Shown here: positions 7,540-55,868 of the stretch, piece by piece
How the letters are laid out: each line of letters opens with the position of its first letter
How positions within the stretch are numbered: position 1 is the first letter of the stretch
Virus record (IMG/VR): IMGVR_UViG_3300022903_000002
Location: 32,001-96,000 of that record
From: a virus
DNA: 64,000 nt
Reading direction: 5' to 3' (one strand)
The notes under the pieces: generated by a model
Database searches by the model: none
The model's input: the letters and a program-made list of their open reading frames with translations, nothing else
What the model was told of the DNA's origin: nothing
Made by a program: the position numbers and the translations under genes

Positions 7540-7551
7540 GGGGGGTTGCTC

Positions 7552-10201: not shown

Positions 10202-10217
10202 CCGTCGCTCCTTAGAC

Positions 10218-10243
10218 CAGGCGCCTTCACGGGCGCCTTTTTC
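10218..10243 (+). terminator. Rho-independent terminator
   Basis: AGGCGCC-TTCACG-GGCGCCT followed by a T-run. Confidence 0.65.
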
Positions 10244-10322
10244 ATGCCCGCAGCCAATGAGGTGACGGGCTGACCTGCCACGCCTACGCGATGTGGGTGT
10301 GGCTGACCGGAAGAAGAAAACG

Positions 10323-10955: not shown

Positions 10956-11029
10956 CCCCCTGATTGATCGCAGCAACCGGACCGTTGGCACGGGCCGGGG
11001 CCGCTGCATGCCTGAAAGGAAGTCCCCCC

Positions 11030-11998: not shown

Positions 11999-12065
11999 TC
12001 CGTGTTGGTCGGGCGTCGTGGCTGCTGCGCGCTGGCTGCGGCGCCTGACCTTTCGGAGGTGACTG

Positions 12066-13052: not shown

Positions 13053-13679
13053 GTGGAGGTGAGCGTGGACGCTCTCGCAACCGTCGAGGACCTCGAGGCG
13101 CGGCTCGGACGCGACCTCACCACCGAAGAAGCCGTGCGTGCCAGCGCGATGCTCGCGGACATGTCCGCGATGATCCGTTCGTACACGGGCCAGGACTTCA
13201 CGGTCACCGACGATGACCAGGTGACCTTGCGGGGGGTCGGCGGGGAGATTCGCCTGCCGCAGCGACCGGTAACAGAGGTGTCCACGGTCGTCGCGATTGG
13301 CGGCGACGGACTCCCCGATGTTCCACTGGTCGACTGGGTATGGGACGGCATCGACACCATCCGCGTCGGTGACGGCAGCTTCGTCATCAACCTGCCCGAA
13401 GTGTGGTGGGACGATGACGGATACCCGGGCACCTACCGGGTCACATACAGCCACGGATACGAGGAGACACCCGGGGACGTCCTCGCGGTCATCTGCGGGG
13501 CGATCCTGCGGGTCTTCATCAACCCGAACGGCTACCGCTCCGAGACTGTCGGGTCCTACTCGGTGACCTACGCGTCCCCTGGTGCGGGCGAAACCGTTGG
13601 TACATCCCTGACGCGGGCCGACCGGTTGGTTCTCGACCGCTACCGGCGTAAGGCCGGGACGATCAAGGTCAGGCGTTGA
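13053..13679 (+). CDS. head-tail connector/adaptor
   Basis: LATVEDLEARLGR..., NPNGYRSETVGSYSVTY. Confidence 0.8.
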   Translation: MEVSVDALATVEDLEARLGRDLTTEEAVRASAMLADMSAMIRSYTGQDFTVTDDDQVTLRGVGGEIRLPQRPVTEVSTVVAIGGDGLPDVPLVDWVWDGIDTIRVGDGSFVINLPEVWWDDDGYPGTYRVTYSHGYEETPGDVLAVICGAILRVFINPNGYRSETVGSYSVTYASPGAGETVGTSLTRADRLVLDRYRRKAGTIKVRR

Positions 13680-13993
13680 TGCTCGGCCCACACACCGTCA
13701 CCGTCATCCAGCCCGCGAGCCGGGACAACTGGGGTGACACCCAGACTGGCGACACCGAGACCAACGTGCCGGGGTGTTTCTGGCAGCCGCGCTCCACCTC
13801 GGAACGGACGACCGGCCAGGACACCGTGATGATCAACCCGTGGGTGTCGATGCCACCGTCAGCACCAATCGCAGCGACGAGCCGCGTCCGGTTCGACGGC
13901 GTCACCTACGAGGTCGTCGGCGAACCCGCCCTGCACCACACACCCAGAGGACCGCACCACTTCGAGGTGGAGCTGAACGAGGTCAAGGGGTGA
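13679..13993 (+). CDS. head-tail stopper
   Basis: Position; YEVVGEP, HHFEVEL. Confidence 0.75.
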   Translation: MLGPHTVTVIQPASRDNWGDTQTGDTETNVPGCFWQPRSTSERTTGQDTVMINPWVSMPPSAPIAATSRVRFDGVTYEVVGEPALHHTPRGPHHFEVELNEVKG

Positions 13994-13996
13994 GCT

Positions 13997-14293
13997 ATGG
14001 CCCGGGAAATCTCCTACACGCCTGATTACAAGGGCACGGGCAAGCTGATGCGCGGTAAGGAGATGGAGGCCTTCATGCGCCTCAAAGCGCAGGAAGGCAA
14101 GCAGTACGCCGAGGTGATCGCACCGCGCGAAACAGGCGAGTACGCGTCGGCTTTCCGTGTCGCCTCGACCCGCTCCGGCGACCGCGCTACCGCCTACCTG
14201 TACAACGACTCTGATCACGCGTACCTCGTCGAGTACGTCGATGACTACCGAACCCTCGGCGTCGTCGCGGACATCATCGAGAACGGTCTGTGA
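13997..14293 (+). CDS. neck protein (HK97 gp10-like)
   Basis: IAPRETGEYASAF, HAYLVEY; position. Confidence 0.7.
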   Translation: MAREISYTPDYKGTGKLMRGKEMEAFMRLKAQEGKQYAEVIAPRETGEYASAFRVASTRSGDRATAYLYNDSDHAYLVEYVDDYRTLGVVADIIENGL

Positions 14294-14673
14294 TGACCGT
14301 CCTCGCACCGTTCCCGGACGTGGAACGCGCGGTTGGCGACCTCGTAACCGGCCTCGGAACGGCAGGGTCGGAAACGAACATCACCCTGCAGTCCACGCTT
14401 CCGTACATCCGGATCCGCCGCCTTGGCGGTTCCGATGACCGCGTCACCGACGCCGCCCGCGTGGACGTGCACGTGTACGACACGAATGCCACGTCGGCGA
14501 AAGAGATCTCCGAGCAGATCCGGCAGCGGCTGATCTCAGGGCCATCTATGACCGCCCATGGCGTCATCGACCGGGCCTGGACCGAGATCGGCCCGCAGAC
14601 GATCCCAGCCGATGACACCGCGGATATCCGTCAGGTCGTCGCCACTTACCGCATTTCGATGCGCCGCCGCTGA
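14293..14673 (+). CDS. tail terminator protein
   Basis: FPDVE, LPYIRIRRLGG, RVDVHVY. Confidence 0.8.
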   Translation: MTVLAPFPDVERAVGDLVTGLGTAGSETNITLQSTLPYIRIRRLGGSDDRVTDAARVDVHVYDTNATSAKEISEQIRQRLISGPSMTAHGVIDRAWTEIGPQTIPADDTADIRQVVATYRISMRRR

Positions 14674-14752
14674 CCAGCGGCTCCTTTTTCAGGCCCGCCA
14701 GCCTGTCCCAGCCCCGCCCGCGGGGCCACCTATCCCGCAGAGGGGAACATCC

Positions 14753-15421
14753 ATGGCTGGCGTCAGCTATGACGATCTTCAACAGCGCAATGCCGCGCTG
14801 ATCTTCAAGGCCCTGCAGGGGTCCGTGTTCGTCGCCCCGTCGAGCGTCGCAGCGATCACCGCACTGACCGACACCGACAAGCTCCTCAAGGAACTCCCCG
14901 AAGGGTACGAGGACGTCGGCTGGATCAGCGACGACGGAGCCCAGTTCTCCCGCGACACCGACACTAGCGACATCACCGGCTGGGGAAGTGTGGAGCCGCT
15001 CCGCTCGGACGTCACACAGGACACCACCACGCTGCAGATGGAAGCCCTGGAGACCAAGAAGTCGACGATCGGTCTCTACACAGGCGCCGACATGGACGCG
15101 GTGACCCCGGACCCGGTCTCCGGTGAGGTCAGCATCCAGAAGCCCGCCCGGCCCGGGTTCCGCTACTACCGGGTCCTCGCTGTTGCCGTGGACCTCACCG
15201 ATGACGGCGAGTACTACGTCGCCCGGTTCCTGCCGCGGGCCCGCGTCACGGACTACGACGACCAGAACATGCAGTCCAGCGACGACTCGCCGATCACCTG
15301 GCCTGTCACGATGACGGGCTACGAGGACCCCCTTCTCGGCTACTCGGAGAACTACCTGTTCGGAGGCCCCGGCTGGGCGACGAGGCTCGCCGCGATGGGC
15401 TTCGAGCCCATCGGCTCCTGA
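14753..15421 (+). CDS. major tail (tube) protein
   Basis: AGAGGGG RBS; GYEDVGWISDDG, GWGSVEPLRSD, FGGPGW. Confidence 0.88.
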   Translation: MAGVSYDDLQQRNAALIFKALQGSVFVAPSSVAAITALTDTDKLLKELPEGYEDVGWISDDGAQFSRDTDTSDITGWGSVEPLRSDVTQDTTTLQMEALETKKSTIGLYTGADMDAVTPDPVSGEVSIQKPARPGFRYYRVLAVAVDLTDDGEYYVARFLPRARVTDYDDQNMQSSDDSPITWPVTMTGYEDPLLGYSENYLFGGPGWATRLAAMGFEPIGS

Positions 15422-15502
15422 TACGTCGCGGCGGCCGGTCTAGCTGGCGGGCCCCGGCCGCCGCGACTCCAAGGCCCGCCAGCACAAGAGAAGGGTCCGG
15501 CC

Positions 15503-15688
15503 GTGGCCGCAGCAAGCTCCCAATACCCCGTCTACGTGTCACCGGACGGCGAGAAGGAACAGTTCGCGACGTCGCCAGCCCGTGAGGTGCAACTCAGGCA
15601 TGCGGGCTGGCGGCTCAAATCCGAACCTCGCAAGAAGAAGACGCCGAGCGGTGACCTGAGCCGCTGGCAGCAACCCACCACCAACTGA
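15503..15688 (+). CDS. small hypothetical protein
   Basis: 61 aa between the tail tube and chaperone genes, with RBS. Confidence 0.55.
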   Translation: MAAASSQYPVYVSPDGEKEQFATSPAREVQLRHAGWRLKSEPRKKKTPSGDLSRWQQPTTN

Positions 15689-15703
15689 CAGAGAGGCCCG
15701 CCA

Positions 15704-15985
15704 ATGGCCGCCAAGAAGAACCAGTTCCAGCTCGCCGTCTACCGGGCGGAGGCCGTCAAGGCGCCGTTCGAGCTGATCATCGACGAGAAGACCAGCGTCA
15801 TGATCCCGCCGCCGAGTACCGATGATGTTCTCGCCGTCGCCGAGGCGGCCACTCCGCGCGAGCAGTTGCGGCTCCTCGCCGGCGACCAGTTCGGGACACT
15901 GATGGAGCACATCAGTGATGAGCCCGGCGGGATCTTGAAGCCTCTGCTGAACGATATGACCAGTCACTTCAAGCTGGGGGAATAG
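15704..15985 (+). CDS. tail assembly chaperone (G)
   Basis: Ends ...KLGE* over the slippery GGGGGAA. Confidence 0.8.
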   Translation: MAAKKNQFQLAVYRAEAVKAPFELIIDEKTSVMIPPPSTDDVLAVAEAATPREQLRLLAGDQFGTLMEHISDEPGGILKPLLNDMTSHFKLGE

Positions 15986-16440
15986 CGCGCGCTGCTGGCC
16001 TGATCGACAGGTACGGCAGCGCGATCCGCGCTGACCTGCGCCGATTCTACGGCGTGGACATGCTTGATTTCTTCCGGGACAGATTGTCGGCACAAGAGAT
16101 CCTCGACTATCTCGAGCACATGCCGCGCACGTCCGCGTATCACACGGCCATTGCGGAGGACGAGGACCTTGCCGAGCAACTGGCGGGAATGCCAGATCAG
16201 AAGCCGGGACCGCCGCGGCTAGCGGAGTTTTCACCAGAGGTGCAGGTCCTTGCTGAGGTGCGGGATCTGGTGGCGACGCTCATCAACGTGCAGATCGCCC
16301 GGGCCGGCAAGAAACCATCGAAGGTGAAGCCTTACCCGCGGCCCGTATCGGCGGTTGAGCAGGTCCGCCGGCGGGAGCGGTACCGGAAGCACACGTCGCT
16401 GGTCGCACAACTCATTCCCGGGTCGGATCGACAGCGGTAG
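15976..16440 (+). CDS. tail assembly chaperone GT extension via -1 programmed frameshift
   Basis: GGGGGAA at 15976-15982; the -1 frame reads IARAAGLIDRYGSAIRADLRRFYGVD... open to 16440. Confidence 0.8.
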   Translation, partial: GGIARAAGLIDRYGSAIRADLRRFYGVDMLDFFRDRLSAQEILDYLEHMPRTSAYHTAIAEDEDLAEQLAGMPDQKPGPPRLAEFSPEVQVLAEVRDLVATLINVQIARAGKKPSKVKPYPRPVSAVEQVRRRERYRKHTSLVAQLIPGSDRQR

Positions 16441-16473
16441 CCCACGGCACGAGTCCCAGACGGGGGTGGTGTC

Positions 16474-19400
16474 GTGGCCGCTCAAGTCGGTGCTGCTTAC
16501 ATCAAGGTCGCTCCGAACCTCGCCGGTTTCCACCGCACGATCACCAAAGAGCTAAAAAGCCTCAGCCCGCAGGTCAAGAAGATCGGGTTGGGGCTCGGCC
16601 GGAACCTTGGCGACGGCATCAAGGTCGGCCTCGGCGACCCGCTTTCCGGACCGCTGGATGAGTCCACCAAGAAGCAACGGCAGAAAGGCCCCAAGCAGGG
16701 CGAAGAGGTCGCTGGGGCGTTCGCGAAGGGTTTCGAGAAGCGCCTGAAGGCAGCGTTTCAGGCCCTGCCGAAAGCCGAAATCGACGCTGATTCCTCACCC
16801 GCCGACAAGAAGATCGCGGAGCTTCGGCGACAGCTTGAGGCACTCTCCGGCAAGACCGTCGGTGTCGACATTGACGCGGGTGCGGCTCTCTCAGAGGTCG
16901 CCGCGATCCGGTCCGAGTTGGAGGCACTGGACGGCCACGAGTCGATCCAGGTCGATGTCGACGCCGCTGCGGCCCTGGCGGAGCTCACCGCGGTACAGGT
17001 CGAGGTCGATCGGGTAGATGGGCGCACAGCCCGTGTGAACGTCAACGCGGACGTGTTGCCGGCGTTGGCTGGTATCGGGCTTGTCAGCACGGCGTTGCTT
17101 GGTCTGACGGCGATTCCGATTGCGGCGACGGTCGGTGTGGGGATCCTGTCGCTGGTCGGTCCGCTTGGTGCGGCGGGAGCTGGGTTCGCTGGTCTTGCTG
17201 CGGTCGCGACTCCGTCGATCAACCGTATCGGCGAGGCGCTGAAGGTCCAGAAGCAGGCGCAGGACGCGTCGACGGGTAGTGCCGCGCAGGCCGCGGCGGC
17301 GAACAAGAAGCTCGCCGCGACGATGGCGGCTCTGTCGCCTGCTGAGCGCGACGTGCTCAAGTCGTGGAACGGGCTGCGGACGGCGTTCACGGGCTGGGCG
17401 AAGGAACTGCAGCCTGCCGTGCTCCCGCTGTTCACGCGCGGCATCAACCTGGTGAAGCAGGCTCTGCCCGGGTTGACGCCGATCGTGAAAGGCGCGGCCG
17501 GCGCGGTCAACGGTCTCCTCGGGGACGTTACCCGCGCGGCTCAGTCGCCGTTCTGGCGGCAACTACGGACGAATATCACAGGTCTGGTGCCGACGTCGAT
17601 CACGGGTTTCGGGAAGATCGCCGGGAACATCGCGACGGGTCTGGCTGGGATCGTGTCCGCGTTCTTGCCGTATGCGCCCACGATCTTGTCGTTCATCACC
17701 CGGATCACCGCGGGTTTCGCCCGTTGGGGCCAGGGGCTGGGGACCTCGAACGGCTTCGCGAAGTTTATGGCCTACGTCAAGCAGAACGCGCCGCTGATCC
17801 TCGAGACGGTCAAGCAGCTCGGCTTGTCGATCGCGCACATTGTGTCGTCGCTGGCACCACTCGGCCCGGCCGTCCTCGGCGGCTTCGGGCTGCTGCTGCG
17901 GTTTATCGGCATGCTGACGCCCGGCGAGATCCAGGCCATCGCGATCGCGTTCACGCTCCTGTCGGTGTCGATCTGGGCCGTGAATTTCGCGCTTGAAGCC
18001 AATCCGGTGGTGCTTGTCATAACGCTGATCGTCGCTCTTGTGGCGGCGGTCGTCTTGGCGTTCAACCACGTGACGTGGTTCCACAATGCGGTGGTCGCGG
18101 CGTTCAACGGCATCAAGGCCGCGGTCCTGTTCGTCTGGAATTCGGTCTTGAAGCCGACGTTCTCGGCTCTCGTGGTCGCTTTCCAAGCGATCAGCACGGT
18201 CGTGATGTGGCTGTGGCGGAACGTGATCTCCCCGGCATTCAGCGCCATCTCGCTGGCCGCACGGATCCTGTTCGCGATCGTCGCCGTTGCCGTCCTGGCG
18301 CCGCTGGTCATCGCGTTCAACATCCTCAAGGCCGTGATTCTGGCTTGGTGGCACATCGTTGTGGTGCCAGCGTTCGCGGCGGTGCAGGCGGTCATCGCGG
18401 CAGCATGGGTGGTGATCCACCCGATCCTGGCCGCGCTCGGCGTCGCGGTCCGCGCTGTTGGCGCTGCGGCGATGTGGCTGTGGCACAACGCGATCGTGCC
18501 GGCCTGGAACGGCATCAGCCTTGCAATTGCCACCGTGTACAACACGGTGATTCACCCGATCTTGAACGCGCTGAACGCGGTGCTACGGAACGTGATCGCC
18601 CCGGTTTTCCGGTGGATCTACACATCGGTGATCAAGCCGATGTTCCAGGCGGCGGGCGCTGTGATCCGTAACGTCTGGAACACCGCTATAAGTCCGGCGT
18701 TCAACGCTCTTAAGTCGGGTGTGAACGCGGTCAAGAACGCGTTCTCCACCGCTGTCTCGGCAATCGGGCGAATCTGGAAGGGCCTGGAGTCCGCCACCAA
18801 GAAACCCGTCCAATTTGTTGTCAACACGGTCTACAACAACGGCATCCGTTCCGTGTGGAACAAGGTCGCCGGCCTAGTTCACCTGCCTCAGCTGCCTGCG
18901 GCGAAGTTCGCTCAGGGCGGTATCTTCCCGGGCTACACGCCCGGCAAGGACCCGTACTCCATGCCGATGGCCGCCTTCTCTGGCGGCGAGGCCGTCATGC
19001 GGCCCGAGTTCACCCGAGCGGTCGGCCCCGGGTTCGTGTACGCGGCGAACAAGGTAGCTCGCAAGCGTGGGCCTGGCGGTGTCCGGGATTTCCTCGCGAA
19101 CGGTGAGATGAAGTTCGCGACGGGCGGGATCCTGCCCGGACGGCATGTGGCGGCATTCGCGAATGGCGGCATCATCGGAGGGATCCTCGGGGCCGTCAAG
19201 CGTGCCAGCAGTCTCGTGGTTCGCGGCGCGTCATCGGTCCTCGGCGGGGGTGCGAGCGCGTTCGCGAAGACCGTCCTCAACCCGATCCTGTCTCGGATCC
19301 CGGGGGCGGATTCGCCGTGGGCGCAGGGCATCCTGTCCCTGCCGAAACGGATGATCGATGGGTTCATCTCCTGGCTGCACACAGCCATCGATCCGAAGCT

Positions 19401-21216
19401 CGGCGGTGACGCGCATGGTGTTGTCGCCGCAGCGAAGAAATACATCGGTATCGGCGACGATAGAGGACCTAACAACAACATCTTCAGCCGCTGGTGGGGA
19501 ATGCCGGGCGGGCCTTGGTGCTTCGCGGCCGGAACACTTGTGGACACCCCACAAGGCTTGGTCCCGATCGAGAACCTCAAGGTCGGCGACCCGGTCTACA
19601 CCGGAACCGGCAATGTCCAGCGGGTGTCGTGTCTGTACAGGAGGCAGAAAGAGCTGTGGCGCGTCGTCGCCATGGGAATGCCCGAGACCTTCACGACCGA
19701 AGACCATCCGTATCTTGTGCGTAAGCGCCTCGCTGGGCGGAAGCGGGCGTTTGCGGAGCCGCAGCGCACATCGGTCAAGGACCTCCGGAAGGGGGACCTG
19801 ATCGGCCTTCCGCTCGGGCCGGAAGGAACGACGAAGTACGACCCGGACCTGAGTTACGTCCTCGGCATGTATGTCGCCGACGGATGCCGGAGCAAGGGCA
19901 CCGTGATCTTCTCGGATGCCCCTGGTGAGACCGAACGGATCCTAACCGCCCTCAAGCGCGCCGGCTTCGATCGAGCATGGACCACACGTAACGGCGGTGG
20001 GACGAACACGGGCATCACCGACAGCGGCCTCTACGAACTGTGCGGGAAGTTCGGGGACCTGGCACACAACAAGGAGATCCCCGATGAAGTCCACGCTTGG
20101 GATGCCGCCGCCAGGACCGCTTTCGTAGAGGGGTTCCTCGCCGGGGACGGGCACCTGAACGATGCGATCTCGTGCGGTGGTTCGCCGCGCTGGGAGGTCA
20201 CGACCGTTTCACCGAAGTTGGCCGTCGGGCTGGCCAAACTACTGCGGTCCCTGGGGTTCCTCCCGTCGGTGAATGACGGTCGCCCTGAACAATCGCTGAC
20301 GATCTGCGGACGGGATACACACTGCCGGAAGCAGTTCAAGCTGAGCTGGCGGAACGCCCATCGCGATGAACTTACCTATCACCATTACGTCGAAGAGGAC
20401 GGTGTCATCTGGGTTCCGGTTCGTGAGGCGGAGCCGACGGGGCGAGTCGAGTGCGTGTATGACATCACCGTTCCTGGCGAGCACACATTCATCGCTAACG
20501 GAGCGTATTCGTTCAACTGCGCCATGTTCGTTTCTCGTGTCATCAAGGACGCCCACGCCGAGAAGTACTACTCCGGATATCCGACGGCGCTGGCCGCCGG
20601 GTACAACTCGATGCGGCATGTCAGTAGCGGGCAAGCTGGTGACCTCGCCACATACAACGGCGGCGGTCACATCAACATCATCGAGAAACCCGCTGGCGGG
20701 GCGTACATGACGATCGGCGGGAACCAGAACGCGCTCGTACAGCGCGGTATCCGGTCTCCCGGCCTGATTTTGCGCCCGGCGTTCGCGAACGGCGGGATCA
20801 TCGGCCGAGAAGCGCAGCGCCTGTTCAAGCACGACGCACCGCGGCAGATCGACAAGCACGAACTGCAGACGCCGATGGTGCAACTCATGCGTTCGCTGCC
20901 GTCCGGGCAGATGAGCAACGTTGTCCGCGCGATCACGAAGAAGCACCTCACCGTCGCGAACGCCGGCGTCTACGACGACGGAGGTGTTATTGCCCCTGGG
21001 TTGAACCTTGTCGCGAACGCGTCACGAAAACCGGAAGCGCTGCTGAGCAACGCGCAGTGGCGTGGCATCACCGAGGCCGCCGCTGGTGGCGACACGCACT
21101 ATCACGCGCACCTGGACGAGATGACGCAGGCGGCCTACGGCACGCAGATCCGCTCGACATTCCACGCGATGGAAACCCAGCGGGCCATGAAAGAGCGCAT
21201 CGGACGGAGGCGCTGA
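16474..21216 (+). CDS. tape measure protein with C-terminal CHAP domain interrupted by an intein
   Basis: 1580 aa, Ala-rich, W-spaced amphipathic repeats, FAxGG motifs; follows the chaperones. Confidence 0.92.
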   Translation: MAAQVGAAYIKVAPNLAGFHRTITKELKSLSPQVKKIGLGLGRNLGDGIKVGLGDPLSGPLDESTKKQRQKGPKQGEEVAGAFAKGFEKRLKAAFQALPKAEIDADSSPADKKIAELRRQLEALSGKTVGVDIDAGAALSEVAAIRSELEALDGHESIQVDVDAAAALAELTAVQVEVDRVDGRTARVNVNADVLPALAGIGLVSTALLGLTAIPIAATVGVGILSLVGPLGAAGAGFAGLAAVATPSINRIGEALKVQKQAQDASTGSAAQAAAANKKLAATMAALSPAERDVLKSWNGLRTAFTGWAKELQPAVLPLFTRGINLVKQALPGLTPIVKGAAGAVNGLLGDVTRAAQSPFWRQLRTNITGLVPTSITGFGKIAGNIATGLAGIVSAFLPYAPTILSFITRITAGFARWGQGLGTSNGFAKFMAYVKQNAPLILETVKQLGLSIAHIVSSLAPLGPAVLGGFGLLLRFIGMLTPGEIQAIAIAFTLLSVSIWAVNFALEANPVVLVITLIVALVAAVVLAFNHVTWFHNAVVAAFNGIKAAVLFVWNSVLKPTFSALVVAFQAISTVVMWLWRNVISPAFSAISLAARILFAIVAVAVLAPLVIAFNILKAVILAWWHIVVVPAFAAVQAVIAAAWVVIHPILAALGVAVRAVGAAAMWLWHNAIVPAWNGISLAIATVYNTVIHPILNALNAVLRNVIAPVFRWIYTSVIKPMFQAAGAVIRNVWNTAISPAFNALKSGVNAVKNAFSTAVSAIGRIWKGLESATKKPVQFVVNTVYNNGIRSVWNKVAGLVHLPQLPAAKFAQGGIFPGYTPGKDPYSMPMAAFSGGEAVMRPEFTRAVGPGFVYAANKVARKRGPGGVRDFLANGEMKFATGGILPGRHVAAFANGGIIGGILGAVKRASSLVVRGASSVLGGGASAFAKTVLNPILSRIPGADSPWAQGILSLPKRMIDGFISWLHTAIDPKLGGDAHGVVAAAKKYIGIGDDRGPNNNIFSRWWGMPGGPWCFAAGTLVDTPQGLVPIENLKVGDPVYTGTGNVQRVSCLYRRQKELWRVVAMGMPETFTTEDHPYLVRKRLAGRKRAFAEPQRTSVKDLRKGDLIGLPLGPEGTTKYDPDLSYVLGMYVADGCRSKGTVIFSDAPGETERILTALKRAGFDRAWTTRNGGGTNTGITDSGLYELCGKFGDLAHNKEIPDEVHAWDAAARTAFVEGFLAGDGHLNDAISCGGSPRWEVTTVSPKLAVGLAKLLRSLGFLPSVNDGRPEQSLTICGRDTHCRKQFKLSWRNAHRDELTYHHYVEEDGVIWVPVREAEPTGRVECVYDITVPGEHTFIANGAYSFNCAMFVSRVIKDAHAEKYYSGYPTALAAGYNSMRHVSSGQAGDLATYNGGGHINIIEKPAGGAYMTIGGNQNALVQRGIRSPGLILRPAFANGGIIGREAQRLFKHDAPRQIDKHELQTPMVQLMRSLPSGQMSNVVRAITKKHLTVANAGVYDDGGVIAPGLNLVANASRKPEALLSNAQWRGITEAAAGGDTHYHAHLDEMTQAAYGTQIRSTFHAMETQRAMKERIGRRR
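19519..20517 (+). mobile_element. intein (333 aa) with LAGLIDADG homing endonuclease
   Basis: Block A CFAAGTLV, block B TTEDHPY, LAGLIDADG-like YVLGMYVADG and FVEGFLAGDG, block F VYDITV..EHTFIANG, terminal FN followed by Cys+1. Confidence 0.92.
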
Positions 21217-34584: not shown

Positions 34585-34827
34585 TCACGATGCGCTGTCC
34601 TCGGTGATCCCGCACGCCCCGCATGTCCACCCCGAAAGGGCGCAGTCCGACCCGCAACCATTCCAGTTACGGCACGTCGAACACTCTCGCCCGTTATGAA
34701 GCGCCCTCGCGGGCTGGCCGCACGTAAGGCATACGGCGACCTGGCCAGAGCCTCCACCCATCGCGCGGGGAAGGACGTTGCCGCTGTGGTCGGTCTCGTG
34801 GACGTCGCGGACCTCGAAGTTGCTCAC
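34585..34827 (-). CDS. Cys-rich small protein
   Basis: Several CxxC motifs; coupled to the recombinase stop. Confidence 0.55.
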   Translation of the reverse strand: MSNFEVRDVHETDHSGNVLPRAMGGGSGQVAVCLTCGQPARALHNGRECSTCRNWNGCGSDCALSGWTCGACGITEDSAS

Positions 34828-35837
34828 GTCTCGCTCGCTTCCTGGTGGAGAGGCTCAGCCTCGCGGTCAGCCAACGTCTTTCGTCTGCGGGCCGCCAGGA
34901 CGAGCCCAGGTCGCTTGTCGCGCCGGTTGCGCGCCCGGTCGTACCGACGAGTGGTCTTCGGATCCCGATGCCCCAGGGCGTCCTGTACGTCCACCAGCGG
35001 CACGCCTTCGTCCAGCGCGTGCGTGGCCATGGTGTGTCGCAGCGAGTGTGGGCCGAGCCGTTCCCACGACTTGATGCCCGCCGTGCGGGCGAGATGCCGG
35101 ATCAGCCTCCAGGCATACGCCTGATCGATGCGGAAGCCGGAGACGTTCAGGAACAGAGGCTCATCTTTTGCGGGCTTGCCGCGCTCCGCGAGGTAGGCAT
35201 CGAGCGCTTCGGCGGCAATCTCCTCGATATGGCGGTGCGTGATGCTGCCGCCCTTCATAGTCAGGGCGATGGTCCGCTCGCCCTCGTTCCAGCCGAGGTC
35301 TCCGATGTTGGCGGCTACCACTGAGCCGACGCGTAGGCCGGCGTAGAACAGGACGGCGATCAGGGCCGCCGAACGCTTGCAGTCAGCCTCTGCGGCGTCG
35401 AGCAGCTGGTTGAGTTCGGCTTCGCTCAGCCCGACGGCGTTAGAGACGCTCTGGTCGATCTTGGGCCGCTTCACGGCCTTGGCGGGGTTGGTCTCGATGA
35501 CCTCTTCGTCGGTGAGGTACTGGTACCACGAGGACACGACGGCCAGGCGGCGGGAGATCGAAGCGGGGGAGTAGCTCACCTGCTGGAGTGCGTGCTTGTA
35601 GGCATCCACGTGAGCGCGGCGGACCTTGAGCGGGTCGAGGTCGCGCTCGGCGCACCAGGGGAGCCAGCCGGGAACCTTCATACGTGGGGCGGTGCTCATG
35701 AGGTCGCGAGCGTAAGCGACCTTGGTGTGTTCGCTGCCCTGGGCGAGTAGCCATGCAGCGACCATCTGCCGGATCGTGTCTTCAGCATCGTTTGACCGCG
35801 CGGGAAGAGGCGCGACAGTCGGTTCGAGGGCGGTCAT
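34824..35837 (-). CDS. XerC/D-like tyrosine recombinase
   Basis: SAM-like N-domain, GLR, KGG, HSLRH, LGH...TTRRY; no arm-binding domain. Confidence 0.9.
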   Translation of the reverse strand: MTALEPTVAPLPARSNDAEDTIRQMVAAWLLAQGSEHTKVAYARDLMSTAPRMKVPGWLPWCAERDLDPLKVRRAHVDAYKHALQQVSYSPASISRRLAVVSSWYQYLTDEEVIETNPAKAVKRPKIDQSVSNAVGLSEAELNQLLDAAEADCKRSAALIAVLFYAGLRVGSVVAANIGDLGWNEGERTIALTMKGGSITHRHIEEIAAEALDAYLAERGKPAKDEPLFLNVSGFRIDQAYAWRLIRHLARTAGIKSWERLGPHSLRHTMATHALDEGVPLVDVQDALGHRDPKTTRRYDRARNRRDKRPGLVLAARRRKTLADREAEPLHQEASET

Positions 35838-36736
35838 CTCTTCCACAAGTGGACCTTCTCTCCGCCGAGCATCGGCGCTCCCTCGGGGCCTTTAACATGG
35901 GGGGCGATCCAAACCGGGCGATGAACCTCACGCTTTGGGTGCCATTGCTGTCGCCAGTGTCCCCTGACGATCCACTGGTGGTGGTATTCCCGTCCTGATG
36001 CTTCGGATTCGTCCGAGGATGTCTGGGAGCGTCGCAAGGTGATGATCCTCACGGGGGCCGCTTCAGGATCGATCCGAGCTATACGTTTGCGGTCAGCGCG
36101 AGAGTAGGTCGCGTCTTCAATGTTCAGGATCGACTGCTGCATCAGTGTCCAGAATGTCTTCGTGACCGCGCCGTGTTTCTGGGCGCTATCGACATCGGCT
36201 GGCTTCCCGGGTTCTTGTCCGAACGACCACCAGCCGGGGACATGTGTCTCGTGAACTAGCGGGAGCATCCGCCTTGTCGCTTCGACCAGTTTGGGATACG
36301 CGGAGATCTGGTCCGTGTAGTCCCGGCGCTCTGTCAGCCAGATCGTTTGAACACCCTGGCCTTCGAGTACAGCCCAAGCGAACCCGTGGACTCTCTCCGT
36401 AATGGGTTCGAACACGTTTGGAGCTACTTCGACTTCGTAGTCTCGATTCCAAAGAGGTTCGGGAGTGTAGAGCAGGCCGACCATCGAGGGAAGATCCTCT
36501 TGTTGCAGAGAGTAGTCAGGGATGGTTTTTGCAGCCTCGACCGCCAGTTGGGCCATCTGCGGAGCGACGTAGTAGAGGTCAACGCTCACGGAGGCGAGAA
36601 GATCAGCAAACTTGATCCGCATTGCTGTAGGCGTCTCAGATGGGTAGACGTTGTCGAAGAACGCCTCGGCGCGACCGTCTCGGTACCAGGCCAAGAGGTC
36701 ATGCTTGATCATCGGTAGATCGACTGCGCGGATCAT
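35834..36736 (-). CDS. conserved hypothetical protein
   Basis: HQWIVRGHWRQQW...WIAPHVKGP motif; more AT-rich codons. Confidence 0.7.
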   Translation of the reverse strand: MIRAVDLPMIKHDLLAWYRDGRAEAFFDNVYPSETPTAMRIKFADLLASVSVDLYYVAPQMAQLAVEAAKTIPDYSLQQEDLPSMVGLLYTPEPLWNRDYEVEVAPNVFEPITERVHGFAWAVLEGQGVQTIWLTERRDYTDQISAYPKLVEATRRMLPLVHETHVPGWWSFGQEPGKPADVDSAQKHGAVTKTFWTLMQQSILNIEDATYSRADRKRIARIDPEAAPVRIITLRRSQTSSDESEASGREYHHQWIVRGHWRQQWHPKREVHRPVWIAPHVKGPEGAPMLGGEKVHLWKR

Positions 36737-44420: not shown

Positions 44421-46364
44421 TTAGGCGGCGACTGACGCCAGCCGCTGTTTGCCCCGTTCGGTGATGCGATACAGTCCGCGACCGGTCTTCTCGATCTCGC
44501 CCGAGGCGACCAGGTCGGTGAGAGCCTTGGTGATAGTGCGGAGCGCCGGCGGCGGGGACATGTGGGTCTGGATGAACCCGACCATCTCCCCTCGGTTCAC
44601 TTCCTGGCCGTCCCGCTCCGCCAGATAACTCAAGACGGCGTCTTCGCCGATGCGGGACTGGTCGGAGTCGTCCTGTGTGTCCGCCTTCGATGACTGGCTT
44701 TGTGGGGTGTGGGCGCTGGCTCCGTCGCCGCCGGCGACAGGACCGACGAACGGCTCGAGTTGCGCCGGCTCCCCGCTCGTTGCCCAACGTCGCGGCTTGA
44801 TGATCAGGAACGTTCGCATCGTCGCGGGACGGTCAGCGCCGGGCCCGAACACGTAACCGAGACCTGAAGTCGTGTCTCCGTTCGGCCATTCCTTGGGCAG
44901 CGTGCACGGGTCGACGGGCATCGACCCGTTGAACGCGACCTGGCCCGAGAGGCGGTTCGCGGTGCGGAACACGATGACGTTCCCGGCGGCGACTGCGTCA
45001 CGGATCGCCATGGAGTTGCCCAGGCTGTTCAACAGCGGCACTTGGGTGATTAGCCGGAATTTGATCCCGCACTTGCGGGACATCGCGATCATTTCCTCAA
45101 CGAGCGCACAGCAGACAGGGTCACCGAGGACGGTCTGCGCCTCGTCGACTGTGACGCTGATCATTGGCAGGCCGTGACGCGGGTCGCCGGGGGTGAACTC
45201 CTCGATGCCCTCGATCTCTTCGCCGTCCTCATCGACCCACCGGATCGTGGACATGAGTTCGTTGCGGGCGTACATACGGTCGCGGAGTTCACGGAGCCGG
45301 CCGCGGATCGCGTCGAGGCCACCAGCGAACTGAGCGACAGCGTTCTTCCACCCAGACTCGGAGTAGGACTGCCCGCGTTGCGGGTCCAGAAGGATCGAAG
45401 CGATCACACCAGAGTGGCGTTCCTCGGCGAGGAGGAGTTTGACGAGGACAGACTTCCCGGCGTCGGTGGATCCGGCGATGAGGTCGTGGACCGGCCCGGA
45501 CCGTGGCCGGTAGTGCCGGTACGAGACAGGATTCCCGTCGGTGTACACGCCGATACGGGAGACACCAGTGGCGGTTTTGAGAGTCGGCCCAGGCCAGTGG
45601 TGAACCTCCTGGAGCGGGTTCTCGGCCTGCACGAGCACCCGGAAGTGCCGAAGGGACCCGTCGGGGGCCGGTTCGATACTGATCGAGCCGGTCTTCAGGT
45701 GGAGTGCGCCACCGATGTCCTCGGTCGCCATAATCGCGCGCTTGTAGGTGCCTTTGGTGACTTCGCCCAGTCCGGCCCAGCCGCCGCGGATCTTCTCTAC
45801 TTCGAGGATCCGCGAGTGCTCGAGCGGGCCGCCTGAGCAGGAGACATGGAGGCGCCACGACTCGACCAGCTCCGGGTCCTCCGCGACGGGCGCGACCTCG
45901 GGCGCCTGGTGGTTGCGGATGCGGTAGCGCCACCACCACGGCAACGCGAACGCCCCACCGACGATCGCGAGCCACGCGGGCATCGGCTTGCCGACACCGT
46001 GCGCTGCGGCTTCCATGAGCCACAGCGTCGCCGCGATGATTGAGGTGACCGCGTGCAACTGCCGCCAGATATTCACGGCCTTGGCGTAGAGGGCCCACCA
46101 TGTGCCGCCGGCGGTTACCGCGCCGGTTGCGAGGACCGCCCACCACGGGGCACTGAACACCTCCAAGGCGAACCCAGTGACGTAGGCGCCGCCCATGACC
46201 TCGACGGGGATGAGTTGGCGGCGGAACCGTCTCCCGACCTTGAACGTCCCGGCGAGGGCCCGGTGCTCCTTCTTCGGAGCGGACGCCGCAGCGGCAACCG
46301 CTGGCTGGGACACGTCAACGCGAACCGTCTGCGGGTCCCGCTGCTCAACTGCTACGGCGTCCAT
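44421..46364 (-). CDS. traB: FtsK/SpoIIIE-family conjugative DNA translocase (TraB/TraSA-like)
   Basis: N-terminal TM segments, Walker A IAGSTDAGKS, Walker B VTVDEAQ, SRKCGI..LITQ, C-terminal wHTH (KALTDLVASGEIEKTGRGLY). Confidence 0.85.
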   Translation of the reverse strand: MDAVAVEQRDPQTVRVDVSQPAVAAAASAPKKEHRALAGTFKVGRRFRRQLIPVEVMGGAYVTGFALEVFSAPWWAVLATGAVTAGGTWWALYAKAVNIWRQLHAVTSIIAATLWLMEAAAHGVGKPMPAWLAIVGGAFALPWWWRYRIRNHQAPEVAPVAEDPELVESWRLHVSCSGGPLEHSRILEVEKIRGGWAGLGEVTKGTYKRAIMATEDIGGALHLKTGSISIEPAPDGSLRHFRVLVQAENPLQEVHHWPGPTLKTATGVSRIGVYTDGNPVSYRHYRPRSGPVHDLIAGSTDAGKSVLVKLLLAEERHSGVIASILLDPQRGQSYSESGWKNAVAQFAGGLDAIRGRLRELRDRMYARNELMSTIRWVDEDGEEIEGIEEFTPGDPRHGLPMISVTVDEAQTVLGDPVCCALVEEMIAMSRKCGIKFRLITQVPLLNSLGNSMAIRDAVAAGNVIVFRTANRLSGQVAFNGSMPVDPCTLPKEWPNGDTTSGLGYVFGPGADRPATMRTFLIIKPRRWATSGEPAQLEPFVGPVAGGDGASAHTPQSQSSKADTQDDSDQSRIGEDAVLSYLAERDGQEVNRGEMVGFIQTHMSPPPALRTITKALTDLVASGEIEKTGRGLYRITERGKQRLASVAA

Positions 46365-46436: not shown

Positions 46437-47354
46437 TCAGCCGCTGTAGAAGCTCGTGTCGCCGACCTTCGCCGTGGCGCCCTGGACGGACTGCTCGACG
46501 TTCTCGTGGCCCTGCGTCCGCAGCTTTGTGCGCGCCGCCTCAGCGTTCGCGACGGTCTGCTCCGCGGCCTGCAGGCGCTGCGTCGCCGCGGTGCGCCGCT
46601 GCATCGCTGCATCCATCAGATCCGTCATCCCGCCGGCGGTCTCAGAACCCAGGCCCGCGTTCAGCAGGCTCGTGTTCGTGGACTCGTGCGCGGCGATCTC
46701 CTTGTCCGCTGCGGCGATCTCCGCTCGGGCTTCCTCGATCCGCCCTGCCGCTGCGCTGATCGTCGCGTCAAGGTGGGTGCGGTAGGTGCCGATGTTGGTG
46801 GTCTCACCGGTCATCGTGTCGGTCACTGTCGTTTCCTTTCCTGTTGGAGACTCACTGCCTGCCCCGGCCGGGACAGCCCGGAGAACGGCCGCGCCTCGAA
46901 CACGCGACGTCGGCTCCTCTGGTTTCGGGGTGGGTGTCGTCGGCTCCGGCTCGCTCGCCTCGGCCGCAGCGCCTCGCCGGAACTTCGCTTTGGCTCGTTC
47001 CCAGCCAGCGCGGATCGCGTTCCGCAGCGGCGGTACCGGCTCTCCGGTCGCGGCGCGGCGTTCCTGCCATTCCTGGTGCTGCTTCTTGGCAGCGACGAAT
47101 CCGTCCCGCATGTCGGCGACGGTCGGCGACCAGCCGTGCCGCAATTGGTATGCGAAATGACCGAGGGCGTTTCTTCGGGCACCCCACCACAGAGCGCGGG
47201 CGCGCCGGGATTTGTCCCAGCTCGGGTGTCGGCTTTTCAGTTCTTTGTTGAGTTGTTTCCGGTAGCGGTCTTGGGCGGTCCGGTATTCGGCGGCTTTGCC
47301 TTCGAATATGTGGCACAGCGCCCAGCCGATTGCGACGAGCAGTAGAAGTCCCAT
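46437..47354 (-). CDS. transfer-associated membrane/coiled-coil protein (internal start 46826)
   Basis: N-terminal TM; AGGAAAGGA before internal GTG; Ala-rich helical C-domain; directly upstream of traB. Confidence 0.65.
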   Translation of the reverse strand: MGLLLLVAIGWALCHIFEGKAAEYRTAQDRYRKQLNKELKSRHPSWDKSRRARALWWGARRNALGHFAYQLRHGWSPTVADMRDGFVAAKKQHQEWQERRAATGEPVPPLRNAIRAGWERAKAKFRRGAAAEASEPEPTTPTPKPEEPTSRVRGAAVLRAVPAGAGSESPTGKETTVTDTMTGETTNIGTYRTHLDATISAAAGRIEEARAEIAAADKEIAAHESTNTSLLNAGLGSETAGGMTDLMDAAMQRRTAATQRLQAAEQTVANAEAARTKLRTQGHENVEQSVQGATAKVGDTSFYSG

Positions 47355-47358
47355 TACG

Positions 47359-47826
47359 TCACACCCCGAACAATTTTCCGATGACGGCGGCACCAGTCAC
47401 CGCGACGGTTGACAGGAAAGTGGCGAGCCAGCTACCGATGGTCCCGCCGATCTGCGGCCCGAAAGCGGGAAGTAGAAGCGCGGAAATCTCGGTGGTCCGG
47501 TTCGACTGGTGTTTCGGCCACAAGTCGTAGATGACGATGTAGGCGAGGACGAACGCGATCACAACGGGGATGGCAGCACCGACGTAGGGGATGGTGACGG
47601 CCCACCGCATCACGGTGACGGCCCACGAGGCGAGGAACGCGGCGGCGAACCCCACCCCGGCGATCAGGTACAGCCACGGCTTCAGGAACTCGATCTTGCC
47701 GAGGGGCTTCCAGTTCAGCAGCAGCGCGAACGTGATGCAGATGCCAGCGGCGCCGAGCGAGATGGCGGTGAAGTGGTGCGGGACAGACGCCGATACGGCG
47801 GCCTGCCTCGCAGCTACGGATGTCAA
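47359..47826 (-). CDS. Spd-like multi-pass membrane protein
   Basis: AAGGAGAGG before TTG; about four TM helices. Confidence 0.6.
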   Translation of the reverse strand: MTSVAARQAAVSASVPHHFTAISLGAAGICITFALLLNWKPLGKIEFLKPWLYLIAGVGFAAAFLASWAVTVMRWAVTIPYVGAAIPVVIAFVLAYIVIYDLWPKHQSNRTTEISALLLPAFGPQIGGTIGSWLATFLSTVAVTGAAVIGKLFGV

Positions 47827-47852
47827 GGGACCTCTCCTTCTGTGAGCAGGGA

Positions 47853-48329
47853 TTAGTGGAGTCGCCACACGATGACGGCGAAGATCAGGAAGCAGATCGA
47901 GCGGGCGGGTCGCTGGATCAGCCATGCGGCTGCGTACAGCGCCCAGGACGCGGGGATCGCGATGAGGAAGCAGTGGATGCGTTGCGCCAGGCGGAGGAAC
48001 GGAACGCCGCCAGCCATGGGGGCGGCCTTCGCGTAGGCGAGGAGCTCGTAGGTCGACGCAGGGTGCTCGGCTTTGAAGCCGGAGTTGCGCCCGGGCCAGT
48101 TCCCGAGCTTCGCGAGGGTCTCTTTGGCTTGGGAGATCCACAGGTCGACGACCTCGTCTACGGCGCTGAAGTCCTCTTCCTCATCGGTGTCGGCGCCGCG
48201 TTCGCGGTCACCTTCGGTTACACTCTCCTCGCGCGCACCCGGGCGCGCCCGCGCGTCGCGCCCCTCCGTCGCGTAGGGGACCTCTTCTTCGAGCAACGGC
48301 CCGTTGCCCATTGCGCTTTGCCTCATCAC
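47853..48329 (-). CDS. Spd-like membrane protein
   Basis: C-terminal TMs, WLIQRPAR. Confidence 0.6.
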   Translation of the reverse strand: MMRQSAMGNGPLLEEEVPYATEGRDARARPGAREESVTEGDRERGADTDEEEDFSAVDEVVDLWISQAKETLAKLGNWPGRNSGFKAEHPASTYELLAYAKAAPMAGGVPFLRLAQRIHCFLIAIPASWALYAAAWLIQRPARSICFLIFAVIVWRLH

Positions 48330-48547
48330 TGCCCGTCACCTCCTTCCAGATACTGGATGCGCGTGTTGATGAGCCTGATCATCTGGTCGACCTCCGTTAC
48401 GGACAGGCCTGCTGGCAGGTCGGCGACGATCCGCCGCCAGCGGTCGAACTGGACCGCGACGCGCTCCTGCGGGGTCCGCACCCGGCGGGCCTTCCGGTCA
48501 AGGAGTGCCTGGCGTCGCTCGGCGCGTGCCTCGGATCGAGTGCTCAC
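48326..48547 (-). CDS. hypothetical protein
   Basis: Coupled ORF. Confidence 0.55.
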   Translation of the reverse strand: MSTRSEARAERRQALLDRKARRVRTPQERVAVQFDRWRRIVADLPAGLSVTEVDQMIRLINTRIQYLEGGDGQ

Positions 48548-48777
48548 GGGGTCGCCTCGACGTCTGACTGCTCGGCGTGAGCGCCCTGCGGCTTGATGTA
48601 GGTCCGGTACGCCCAGATGGCAGCGATGCCGAGTGTGATGATCACGATCAGCCCGACGAATCGCATGTACGTGTGGAGGTTGCGATCCATAGCGGTCGCG
48701 ACCACTCCGCCGGCGACCGCCCCGGAGATGGTTGCGGCAACAACGGTCGTGACCACTGGCCTGATGTTGGTGGTCAT
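48544..48777 (-). CDS. small two-TM membrane protein
   Basis: Two hydrophobic segments; coupled to neighbours. Confidence 0.6.
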   Translation of the reverse strand: MTTNIRPVVTTVVAATISGAVAGGVVATAMDRNLHTYMRFVGLIVIITLGIAAIWAYRTYIKPQGAHAEQSDVEATP

Positions 48778-50300
48778 CCGGTCTTCACCTCACTGGTCTG
48801 CTGGTGGTCTTTTGGGGTGGTCGCGTCCGCCTGGTCGTTGCCGCGGTGTCCGCCTCCGACCGGTCGCGGACCGGCCTCCTGGATCCGCTTGAGAGCCCAA
48901 CTCGGGGAGAACCCGAACCGCTTGGCGAGGGCACGCTTCGACAGCGGCGACCCTGCCTGGACACTGGCGAGGTACGCGTCCACTGCACGCTGGTTGTCCT
49001 CGGTGGATGGTTGCGGCTTGGTGGTCGCGTTCACATGGTCGCGTCCGGTCTTCCGGGTGGACTTCTTGGCCGGTCGCGTCCGGTTGGCCGGGTGGTCTTT
49101 TGGGGTGGTCGCGTCCGCCTGGTCACTGGACGCAGGAGGCTGGACGTTCGGGTAGTCGCGTCCACTGGTTTCGATGGCGGCGCGTCCGGTCGCGGTAGTG
49201 GTCGCGTCCACCGGTCGCGGGGTGGTCGCGTCCACCGGTCGCGGGGTGGTCGCGTCCACCGGTCGCGGGGTGGTCGCGTCCAGGTGGTCGCTCGGCCGCG
49301 TCCGGGTGGTCGCGGACAGGGTGGTCGCGGCGCCGTCCGTCCAGAACAGCCGGACGCGGGTCTTGGGTCCGGTGACCGGACGCGCGACGGTGGACGCGAC
49401 CACCAACCGGACGGAGGGCCGGCGGTCTTTCGCGAGCCGCTTCTGGTTCTTCGCGATCGCCCTCTTGCGGTCGATCCTGTCGATCTCCGTGACGGCCGCG
49501 GTCCACGCCTCGTCAACGGTTCTGATGCCGTAGCGGACCGCGAGGGACCATGCATGCCACGTGATGCGCGGGAACCGCAGCCACCGGAGGATCCCGAACC
49601 GCGGCCGGGCCTCAGCGACCTTCCCTTTCGCGCGCAGGTGCTTGCGGTGAATCAGCGAGGAGTACAGCTCCCACAGGGCGATGCCGACGAGGCTCATGGC
49701 ACCGTAGGAGACCGCTTTGGGGTTGGGGTCGAGGTTGATGTGCTGACGTATCGTCTGCGCGTTAAGGCGTTCGGTGACGACAGGGCAGGCGTGCCAGTAG
49801 TTCATCGCGCCGGCCGAGCAGGCGAACAGCCAAGTCGCGAACCGGAATAGTGCGCCCCGGTCACCATCTTTGCGCGCTTGGTGGTACATCCAGCCGGTGA
49901 AAGCGGTCGTCAGCTCCCATGCGGCGGCAAATATCAGGGCGCCGAGAAGGGGCCAGCCGAGTTTGTCGTGCGCGAATCCGATCTGCCCAATCCACGCGAC
50001 CGCCATAGGAGCGAGAATCGGCCCCGTGATCATGACTCGCCGACCGACCGTTGGCATTAGCGCCTGGATCTTCTTCGCAAGTTTCTGCCGGGCGTGCTGG
50101 CGTCGAATGCGGCGCTTCGCCTGTTCGTTGGCGCGGGTCTGCTTCTTCTCCTCGTCGAGGATCAGTTTCTGCCGCTCGCGCTGAAGGCGCAGCTGTTCCC
50201 GTTCGTGGCTGAGACGAACACGGGTCTCTTCGGTGATGCGTGCCTGCTCGGCGGAGACCTGGATACGGGTGGCTTTGCGGTCGGCGGGGATCTCGCTCAT
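48774..50300 (-). CDS. SpdB2/DUF2637-like spread protein
   Basis: N-terminal coiled coil, four TMs, RWLRFPRITW motif, repeat region, C-terminal HTH (LSKRALAKRFGFSPSWA). Confidence 0.72.
   Translation of the reverse strand: MSEIPADRKATRIQVSAEQARITEETRVRLSHEREQLRLQRERQKLILDEEKKQTRANEQAKRRIRRQHARQKLAKKIQALMPTVGRRVMITGPILAPMAVAWIGQIGFAHDKLGWPLLGALIFAAAWELTTAFTGWMYHQARKDGDRGALFRFATWLFACSAGAMNYWHACPVVTERLNAQTIRQHINLDPNPKAVSYGAMSLVGIALWELYSSLIHRKHLRAKGKVAEARPRFGILRWLRFPRITWHAWSLAVRYGIRTVDEAWTAAVTEIDRIDRKRAIAKNQKRLAKDRRPSVRLVVASTVARPVTGPKTRVRLFWTDGAATTLSATTRTRPSDHLDATTPRPVDATTPRPVDATTPRPVDATTTATGRAAIETSGRDYPNVQPPASSDQADATTPKDHPANRTRPAKKSTRKTGRDHVNATTKPQPSTEDNQRAVDAYLASVQAGSPLSKRALAKRFGFSPSWALKRIQEAGPRPVGGGHRGNDQADATTPKDHQQTSEVKTG
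48803..49330. repeat. GGTCGCG(TCC) direct-repeat array including a 24-bp tandem repeat
   Basis: GGTCGCGTCC at 48819, 49037, 49072, 49107, 49200, 49224, 49248, 49272 plus shorter GGTCGCG copies; about 34-bp duplication at 48803 and 49091. Confidence 0.9.
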
Positions 50301-50614
50301 GCCGCCACCTCGTCGCGTTGCTGCTGGATCTTCTGGCGTTCGTCGATGTTGTAACCGCCCCAGATGCCGTACTGGTCGTGACGGTCAAGCGCGTCTTCCA
50401 AGCAGTCGACACGGACCGGGCAGCCCTCGCAGATCGACCTAGCGAGCGGCGCACGCCGTCCCTTCGCCGGGTACCAGGCGTCCCCTCCGACGTCACGGCA
50501 CGCGGCGTCGTCCTGCCATTCGAGGCCCCGCATGTCCAAGGCGAGGGCATGGAGGAAGGAGGCGACACCACTGCCCCAGGGGGAGGATGCGTGGTGGCGT
50601 TGGCGGGCGGTCAT
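50297..50614 (-). CDS. whiB: WhiB-family Fe-S transcription factor
   Basis: WQDDAAC...ICEGCPVRVDC...GIWGG. Confidence 0.9.
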   Translation of the reverse strand: MTARQRHHASSPWGSGVASFLHALALDMRGLEWQDDAACRDVGGDAWYPAKGRRAPLARSICEGCPVRVDCLEDALDRHDQYGIWGGYNIDERQKIQQQRDEVAA

Positions 50615-55126: not shown

Positions 55127-55442
55127 GTCATCTCTGGGGTCGATGTAGCAGCGGGGCGCTGAGAGCCACCAGGAACTCCCATATGGCTCGGACCTATAGT
55201 CGCCCATGAGCAAGGGGCTTTGCGGCCCGCACGTTCCTCCTGGGTGTCGTTTTTGAGGGCATGGCGAAACATGCGCCTCGCTGTCGAAGGCATAGCAATG
55301 GACTCCGTCCTCTCGGAGCGCCGTTCTCGCGTGCGCACGCGCGAGGGGCTCCTGGAAGGGGAAGGGGATAGGGGAAGGGGAAACCAATACTTCCCACCGT
55401 TACTACTCCCCTTCCCCTGTGCCCGACGGGTATCCCTCGCTT

Positions 55443-55758
55443 AGGGTTCCCGGAAGGGTTCGCTAAGGGTTCTTGGAACCCTTAGCGAAGGGTTGTGACC
55501 TGCAAGGACGCTGGTTCACGGGCTTGCGGCGAACCATGACCTCCCGCCCTCGAAACGGTTGGCCGAAATAGGGGTAGGAAAGCTGCAAAAACAGGGCCGG
55601 TGGCCGCAGTCAGCACGTCCGGTTGTGAGCCTCGTGAACTGCGAGCAGGAAAAATGCGGCAGGGCTTATGTTTCCCCAGGTAGAAACCCCCGGCGAAGGG
55701 TTCCCGTAACCCTTTATAGAACCCTTGGGGGAACCCTTAGAGAAGGGTTGTGACCTGC
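55443..55758. repeat. AAGGGTT/AACCCTT iteron-like clusters (candidate origin)
   Basis: About 10 copies in two clusters; palindrome TTCGCTAAGGGTTC-TTG-GAACCCTTAGCGAA; 29-bp near-perfect direct repeat at 55475 and 55730. Confidence 0.75.
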
Positions 55759-55868
55759 GCTTTCGCGTATCTCGCGCACAACACTGAGAAGGACGCTGAT
55801 CGGCGCGTGGTGGACTACCTGATCGAGCATGACCGGCGGGATCTGCTCGCGCCAGCCGTGTCCCGCGG

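Follow-up and report, generated by a model that had tools for sequence, protein, structure and literature searches.

A phage gene for a SpdB2-like membrane protein contains an array of 17 co-oriented copies of the word GGTCGCG. What is this array for, and which protein would read it? The sequence analysed was a 64-kb window (the whole stretch of DNA under study, 64,000 nt) within a 105,082-bp single-contig genome with 65.5% GC. Genes for a large terminase, a portal, a major head protein, a tape measure protein and an integrase were present (window positions 5851-21216 and 34824-35846), and the genome is therefore that of a tailed temperate phage. This complete-looking phage genome additionally carries a plasmid-type TraB/Spd module, for which megablast against phage and plasmid collections returned zero matches.

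The TraB/Spd module and the SpdB2-like protein

The module comprised the following genes (window positions):

50297-50614, minus strand: WhiB-family gene, directly upstream of the 508-aa gene
48774-50300, minus strand: SpdB2-like membrane-protein gene (508 aa), with a long N-terminal helix, a hydrophobic helical core, a low-confidence linker and a C-terminal HTH
46437-48777, minus strand: genes between the SpdB2-like gene and traB, for small membrane proteins and a 318-aa protein, co-oriented in a spd-like operon layout
44421-46364, minus strand: TraB/FtsK-like translocase gene (647 aa), with a C-terminal wHTH encoded at about 44421-44612

The SpdB2-like gene lies 2.4 kb upstream of traB in the same orientation. 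The 647-aa protein gave weak matches to the NCBIfam plasmid_TraB and FtsK_SpoIIIE models and weak wHTH matches at its C-terminus. The order WhiB, DUF2637-like gene, TraB is common to the linear plasmids L095-L100; plasmids with this order are linear, 58-264 kb in length, and come from Streptomyces and Kitasatospora.

The 508-aa protein matched DUF2637 (PF10935) with E = 0.0019 and 18.6 bits, under the 22.8-bit Pfam cut-off, and its tblastn homologs include a phage gene annotated DUF2637. Residues 50-310 resemble membrane proteins of Streptomyces phages (e.g., Hiyaa) and of many Streptomyces linear plasmids, in which a DNA translocase gene sits a few genes downstream. An AlphaFold2 model, built on only 9 sequences (relatives), placed helices at residues 6-110, 117-292 and 433-475. 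The N-terminal helix, the helical membrane core, the C-terminal domain and the operon shared with traB together give a SpdB2-like layout. Two parts of the model concern the array:

49020-49421, minus strand: linker (codons 294-427), pLDDT <35 and probably disordered, with 14 of the 16 in-ORF word copies
48876-49004, minus strand: three-helix HTH (codons 433-475), pLDDT about 80, the proposed word reader

Foldseek with the full model gave zero significant matches, the best small folds being the LexA and DeoR DNA-binding domains (E about 0.7), and Pfam with the HTH alone gave sub-threshold matches to HTH_31 and HTH_24. Eight metagenomic relatives (P0004-P0011) had an HTH 70-90% identical to that of the phage protein and kept DATT, RTRP and PRPV at homologous places, with variable flanks. 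In two of them (P0007 and P0010, alignment A2), the linker and HTH were as in the phage protein and the N-terminal membrane domain was divergent; the tail and HTH therefore move as a module.

The word array in the phage and in related loci

The array and its parts were located as follows:

48694-49329, plus strand: array of GGTCGCG with 17 copies in one orientation, of which 8 belong to GGTCGCGTCC, from word counts
48694-48703, no strand assigned: perfect palindrome GGTCGCGACC at the distal array edge, within the next small gene; the form that dominates in relatives
49186-49282, plus strand: 24-bp tandem repeat of 4 units, with two words per unit, 11 and 13 bp apart in different codon phases, and the peptide DATTPRPV
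49392-49401, minus strand: one GGTCGCGTCC in the opposite orientation, bordering the array on its gene-proximal side

The sequence-only reading had reported eight copies of GGTCGCGTCC plus about nine more co-oriented GGTCGCG, and the recount gave exactly 8 (plus-strand starts at 48819, 49037, 49072, 49107, 49200, 49224, 49248 and 49272) within the 17. The number of GGTCGCGTCC copies expected in the whole window was 0.97, and the maximum in 100 shuffles was 4. Plus-strand GGTCGCG occurred 17 times in the array, 34 times in the 64-kb window and 42 times in the 105-kb genome, the expectation in 637 bp being about 0.17 per strand. The minus strand of the array region held only two copies, of which one belongs to the palindrome (48694-48703) and the other is the inverted copy (49395). 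In a k-mer enrichment check across the element, the array was the strongest 7-mer and 8-mer cluster genome-wide; the runner-up held 4-5 copies. The second strongest cluster (window 55351-55851) consisted of five AAGGGTT and four GAAGGGTT and was iteron-like, and the third (window 63501-64001) consisted of four GGGAGCAC within 400 bp.

On the coding (minus) strand the word reads CGCGACC and lies mostly within GGACGCGACCACC or CCCGCGACCGG. As a near-palindrome, GG(T/A)CGCG(A/T)CC, the site is of the operator type and not a polar 8-bp word. Spacing between copies was irregular (11 to 161 bp). The copies are not all independent, because part of the array is the 24-bp tandem repeat, and a 34-bp duplication is also present; at least nine copies stood in distinct sequence contexts.

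Sixteen copies lie in the ORF, in codon phases 10/5/1, and the seventeenth lies in the next small gene. The in-ORF peptide contexts were xATT (10 copies), PRP (5 copies) and RDH (1 copy). Translation of the minus-strand ORF (48774-50300) gave QADATTP at the copy at 48819, TGRDHVN at 49037 and NRTRPAK at 49072, exactly as in the earlier claim that these three copies occupy three codon phases and encode DAT, GRDH and RTRP. Because 14 of the 16 copies are in the linker with pLDDT <35, the words sit where peptide constraint is lowest. The GC3 of 0.85 across codons 294-427 indicates that the reading frame is real. All 10 Ala-Thr dipeptides in the tail were encoded by GCGACC (vs. 14.9% of 148 elsewhere in the genome), and 5 of 7 Arg-Pro dipeptides were encoded by CGACCG (vs. 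5.5% elsewhere); CGA is rare, representing 8.7% of the Arg codons of the genome. From the three codon phases and the forced unusual codons, selection on the array word appears to act at the DNA level.

The comparison covered over 100 related loci. Ninety loci with homologs of the conserved membrane domain were fetched, 87 were evaluable, and the 3′ tail of each gene was scanned for an over-represented 8-mer. The top 8-mer reached at least 5 copies (up to 19) in the tail of 55 of the 87 loci, and in those 55 loci no same-size control window from the flanking 16 kb reached the word count of the tail. The copies spanned all three phases in 45 of the 55 array-bearing loci. The words were lineage-specific (GGTCCGGACC, CCGAGACC, GCGAACCG, CCGGAACG and CCGGATC), with the palindrome GGTCCGGACC being the word of most Streptomyces plasmids. 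In the largest word class (21 loci), motif columns were 96.9% conserved, whereas other linker columns were 90.4% conserved; at third codon positions, the values were 96.0% and 87.1%, respectively. In some viral contigs the gene that follows the SpdB2-like gene downstream contains a continuation or a duplicate of the array (L005:9301-10101, L008:5201-6001 and L004:9601-10301), and the array is thus not strictly confined to one ORF.

The phage word was also found in loci identified through the HTH. We searched 401 genomes from the taxonomic order to which the closest N-terminal homolog belongs, with the C-terminal 108 residues of the phage protein. The matches were membrane proteins of 400-600 aa with a related HTH (33-50% identity) and recognition helices that read like SETWALKRVQE, compared with SPSWALKRIQE in the phage protein. 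For most of these proteins the BLAST similarity to the phage protein was limited to the HTH; their linker peptides were unrelated to the phage linker, and no Pfam family matched them. Their linker-coding regions contained GGTCGCG/CGCGACC arrays, each gene having 7 to 19 sites that lay in either orientation and in all phases, often in the form of the palindrome GGTCGCGACC. Among 13 loci of 18 kb each, 6 had this array as their top word cluster. No array accompanied short proteins whose recognition helix was different. About 4 kb upstream of the membrane-HTH gene, one bacterial genome has an unrelated cluster of 13 TTCTCCG within 600 bp (L114:3301-3900).

We conclude with high confidence that the array is a cluster of predicted protein-binding sites embedded in a coding region. 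The sequence-only reading had argued for selection on the DNA over the peptide, and the three phases, the forced codons and the retention of the word in relatives with a differing peptide all agree with it. Loss of the DNA motif with retention of the peptide repeat in homologs would have spoken against it, and the opposite was seen.

Candidate readers of the word

With an iterated profile search, 45 loci proved to encode a TraB-like ATPase. When same-word and different-word pairs were compared (820 locus pairs), identity over the C-terminal 65 aa of the SpdB2-like protein, the HTH, predicted the word class with an AUC of 1.00, whereas identity of the TraB C-terminus gave an AUC of 0.55. Every word class had its own version of the SpdB2-like C-terminal HTH. 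The words of the two largest classes are both 10-bp palindromes, told apart by their central two bases only, and SpdB2 is known to oligomerise (PMC4447253), which together suit binding by a dimeric HTH. Co-inheritance alone could produce this co-variation, since array and HTH lie <600 bp apart in one gene, and they were separated in no locus compared.

The explanation that we prefer, and that could prove right or wrong with equal ease, is that the array provides docking sites for the C-terminal HTH of the gene's own product, which would tether phage DNA at the membrane beside the TraB/Spd machinery. The SpdB2-like protein would be anchored in the membrane via its hydrophobic core, with its N- and C-termini probably cytoplasmic, and its HTH tails would bind the near-palindromic GG(T/A)CGCG(A/T)CC, of which there are about 17 in the gene that encodes the protein. 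Tied to the membrane in this way, the phage genome would lie close to the Spd proteins and to the TraB hexamer from the same operon, and its DNA would be offered to TraB-type double-strand translocation from one hyphal compartment or cell to the next. We infer binding by the HTH, the membrane topology and the role in spreading or transfer.

Several observations speak against docking by the gene's own HTH. In this phage the copies are co-oriented (17 vs. 2) and only one of them is a perfect palindrome, as would be expected more of a polar translocase word than of an operator bound by a dimer. Purified SpdB2 of pSVH1 was reported as a non-specific dsDNA binder (PMC4447253). The matches of the HTH to known folds and Pfam families were below significance. 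In addition, TraB has a C-terminal wHTH, and no other convincing clt candidate was found near traB.

The last point leads to TraB itself, to which the sequence-only reading had assigned the array as a clt locus. The C-terminal wHTH of TraB would read the word as TRS, and the hexamer would assemble there and pump the phage genome. The DNA-level repeats in a spd-like gene near a traB with a wHTH stood up to analysis, and the element resembles a clt system in part: the array has 17 GGTCGCG in 636 bp, where a cluster of repeats of about 7-9 bp within a few hundred bp is expected, and an FtsK-like TraB with a C-terminal wHTH is encoded on the element, 2.4 kb downstream in the same operon. Known clt loci are short direct repeat clusters bound by TraB (PMC4447253, PMC3583192). 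The array is also the sole strong word cluster near the module, and none was found downstream of the phage traB when a second, TraB-linked cluster was sought; the same search in the homologous loci returned single-phase peptide repeats only.

TraB as the reader was not supported by the comparison of relatives, in which, judged from sequence, the cognate TraB wHTH did not predict the repeat. Different words occurred with TraB C-termini of 80-83% identity, and TraB C-termini of at least three unrelated types all co-occurred with GGTCCGGACC. One locus (L125) has the phage word and a recognition helix nearly identical to that of the phage, but a clearly different TraB wHTH. Two plasmids share a near-identical TraB wHTH but not the array: GCGGACAAC occurs 18 times in the DUF2637 gene of L097 (L097:2600-3420), a Streptomyces linear plasmid of 264 kb, and L098 lacks such copies. 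The word of relatives is palindromic and occurs in both orientations, which misfits a polar loading signal. The plasmids with the TraB closest to that of the phage (L095-L101) had mostly Ala/Glu-rich single-phase repeats in their DUF2637 genes and, L097 and L098 aside, do not bear on the choice of reader. We therefore consider reading by TraB unlikely; it stays alive because the copies are co-oriented here and no other clt candidate lies near traB.

Two side observations concern these plasmids. The GCGGACA(AC) copies of L097 are mostly in a single phase and encode the peptide ADN. In pNA13-type plasmids (L002:12297-14414), the TraB-like ATPase found by the profile is annotated ParM and is preceded by a 137-aa gene annotated TraB; just upstream, CCCGCTCC occurs 13 times (L002:11300-12200), probably as a peptide repeat.

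The array could also act in cis for some other function or protein, be it as a centromere-like partition site, as an operator roadblock for the spd-tra operon or as in-gene iterons, which we regard as quite improbable. Phage initiator genes can contain site arrays (lambda O/ori). The element itself has an integrase and is a temperate phage, and linear plasmids are among its relatives. SpdA2/sps affects segregational stability and not transfer (PMC4170104). The host gene, however, encodes a membrane protein and not an initiator or ParB, and the iteron-like AAGGGTT cluster (55351-55851) is separate from the array. Moreover, the word tracks the adjacent HTH, and another reader would need to co-vary with it too. 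An iteron origin within an initiator gene was ruled out by the membrane-protein host gene and by a GC content of 0.60-0.79 throughout the region around the array, with no AT-rich stretch beside it.

Finally, it is very improbable that the repeats have no DNA function and are a by-product of a Thr/Pro/Arg/Asp-rich low-complexity linker growing via slippage and duplication: the tandem repeat, the 34-bp duplication, the DATT and RTRP peptides kept in close relatives and the probably disordered, change-tolerant linker would agree with it, but the three phases, the irregular spacing, the forced codons in every Ala-Thr copy, the same word in unrelated linker peptides of other genomes and the lineage-specific arrays in 55 of 87 homologs, never equalled by control windows, do not.

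Known systems and biological meaning

Docking by the gene's own HTH was compared with four known systems. The clt repeats are 8-bp repeats in pSVH1, nine 9-bp repeats in pJV1 and four TGACACC in pWTY27 (PMC4447253, PMC3583192), and known clt loci, to which TraB binds, are situated in spacers near traB or korB (PMC4447253, PMC3583192, PMC11600335). The phage locus has in common with them a short GC-rich repeat cluster, an FtsK-like TraB with a C-terminal wHTH and a tra/spd gene set, and its array presumably marks element DNA for the translocation machinery. In contrast to clt, the phage array lies within coding sequence, has 17 copies instead of about 4-9, and consists of a near-palindromic word that in relatives follows the SpdB2-like HTH and not the TraB C-terminus. 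Membrane tethering would be a clt-like marking function performed by a different protein.

SpdA2 of pIJ101 binds palindromes (sps) inside its own gene (Thoma et al. 2014, PMC4170104). The likeness is that the sites lie within the spd-associated gene itself and are visible as a recurring peptide motif. The location of the phage array is thus that of a self-site of the SpdA2/sps type, and binding by the gene's own product is a prediction supported by the co-variation and by the independent loci that share HTH and word. The differences are considerable. SpdA2 is small and soluble, whereas the phage protein is a membrane protein of large size with no relationship to SpdA, and no SpdA-like match was found for the 508-aa protein. 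The sps site is a 12-bp palindrome that occurs 1-3 times and is conserved across plasmids, whereas the phage word is a different 7-10-mer with about 17 copies and depends on the lineage. As noted, sps affects stability and not transfer.

The pSVH1 protein SpdB2 forms oligomers, attaches to dsDNA and interacts with TraB (Thoma et al. 2015, PMC4447253), and SpdB2 homologs have been noted on actinophages (PMC4447253). The phage protein shares with SpdB2 an N-terminal coiled coil, about four membrane helices, a C-terminal domain and an operon place ahead of traB. It differs in that the DNA binding of SpdB2 was reported as non-specific and in that the phage protein falls under the DUF2637 cut-off; no description of word arrays in SpdB2-like genes was found in the literature searched, the coverage of which was incomplete.

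The fourth comparison concerns KOPS (FtsK) and SRS (SpoIIIE), polar 8-mers that are spread chromosome-wide and read by the wHTH of a hexameric dsDNA translocase. These are also short words, for which co-orientation matters, but the copies of the nearly palindromic phage word cluster within 640 bp, and relatives have the word in both orientations.

More tentatively, and with some doubt, we propose that SpdB2-like proteins of actinomycete plasmids, AICE-like elements and phages may be sequence-specific membrane DNA receptors with private in-gene linker arrays, and that these arrays, and not TraB repeats, may mark DNA for TraB-type translocation. The proposal bears on how Spd proteins move DNA through Streptomyces hyphae and tell their own element apart, a question that has been open since the pock phenotype. 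To our knowledge, the only recognition step defined so far is that of TraB and its 8-bp repeats. If the proposal is true, then a lineage-specific array and an HTH on the most conserved Spd protein would constitute a second, testable recognition step, and the variability of the gene's 3′ region would be explained. The array is a clear example of regulatory DNA hidden within a coding region, where a disordered linker frees the peptide to change. It would also provide a sequence signature for finding such modules, including those of phages that may spread as naked DNA, and in phages the proposed marking would allow virion-independent spread of the genome through a mycelium.
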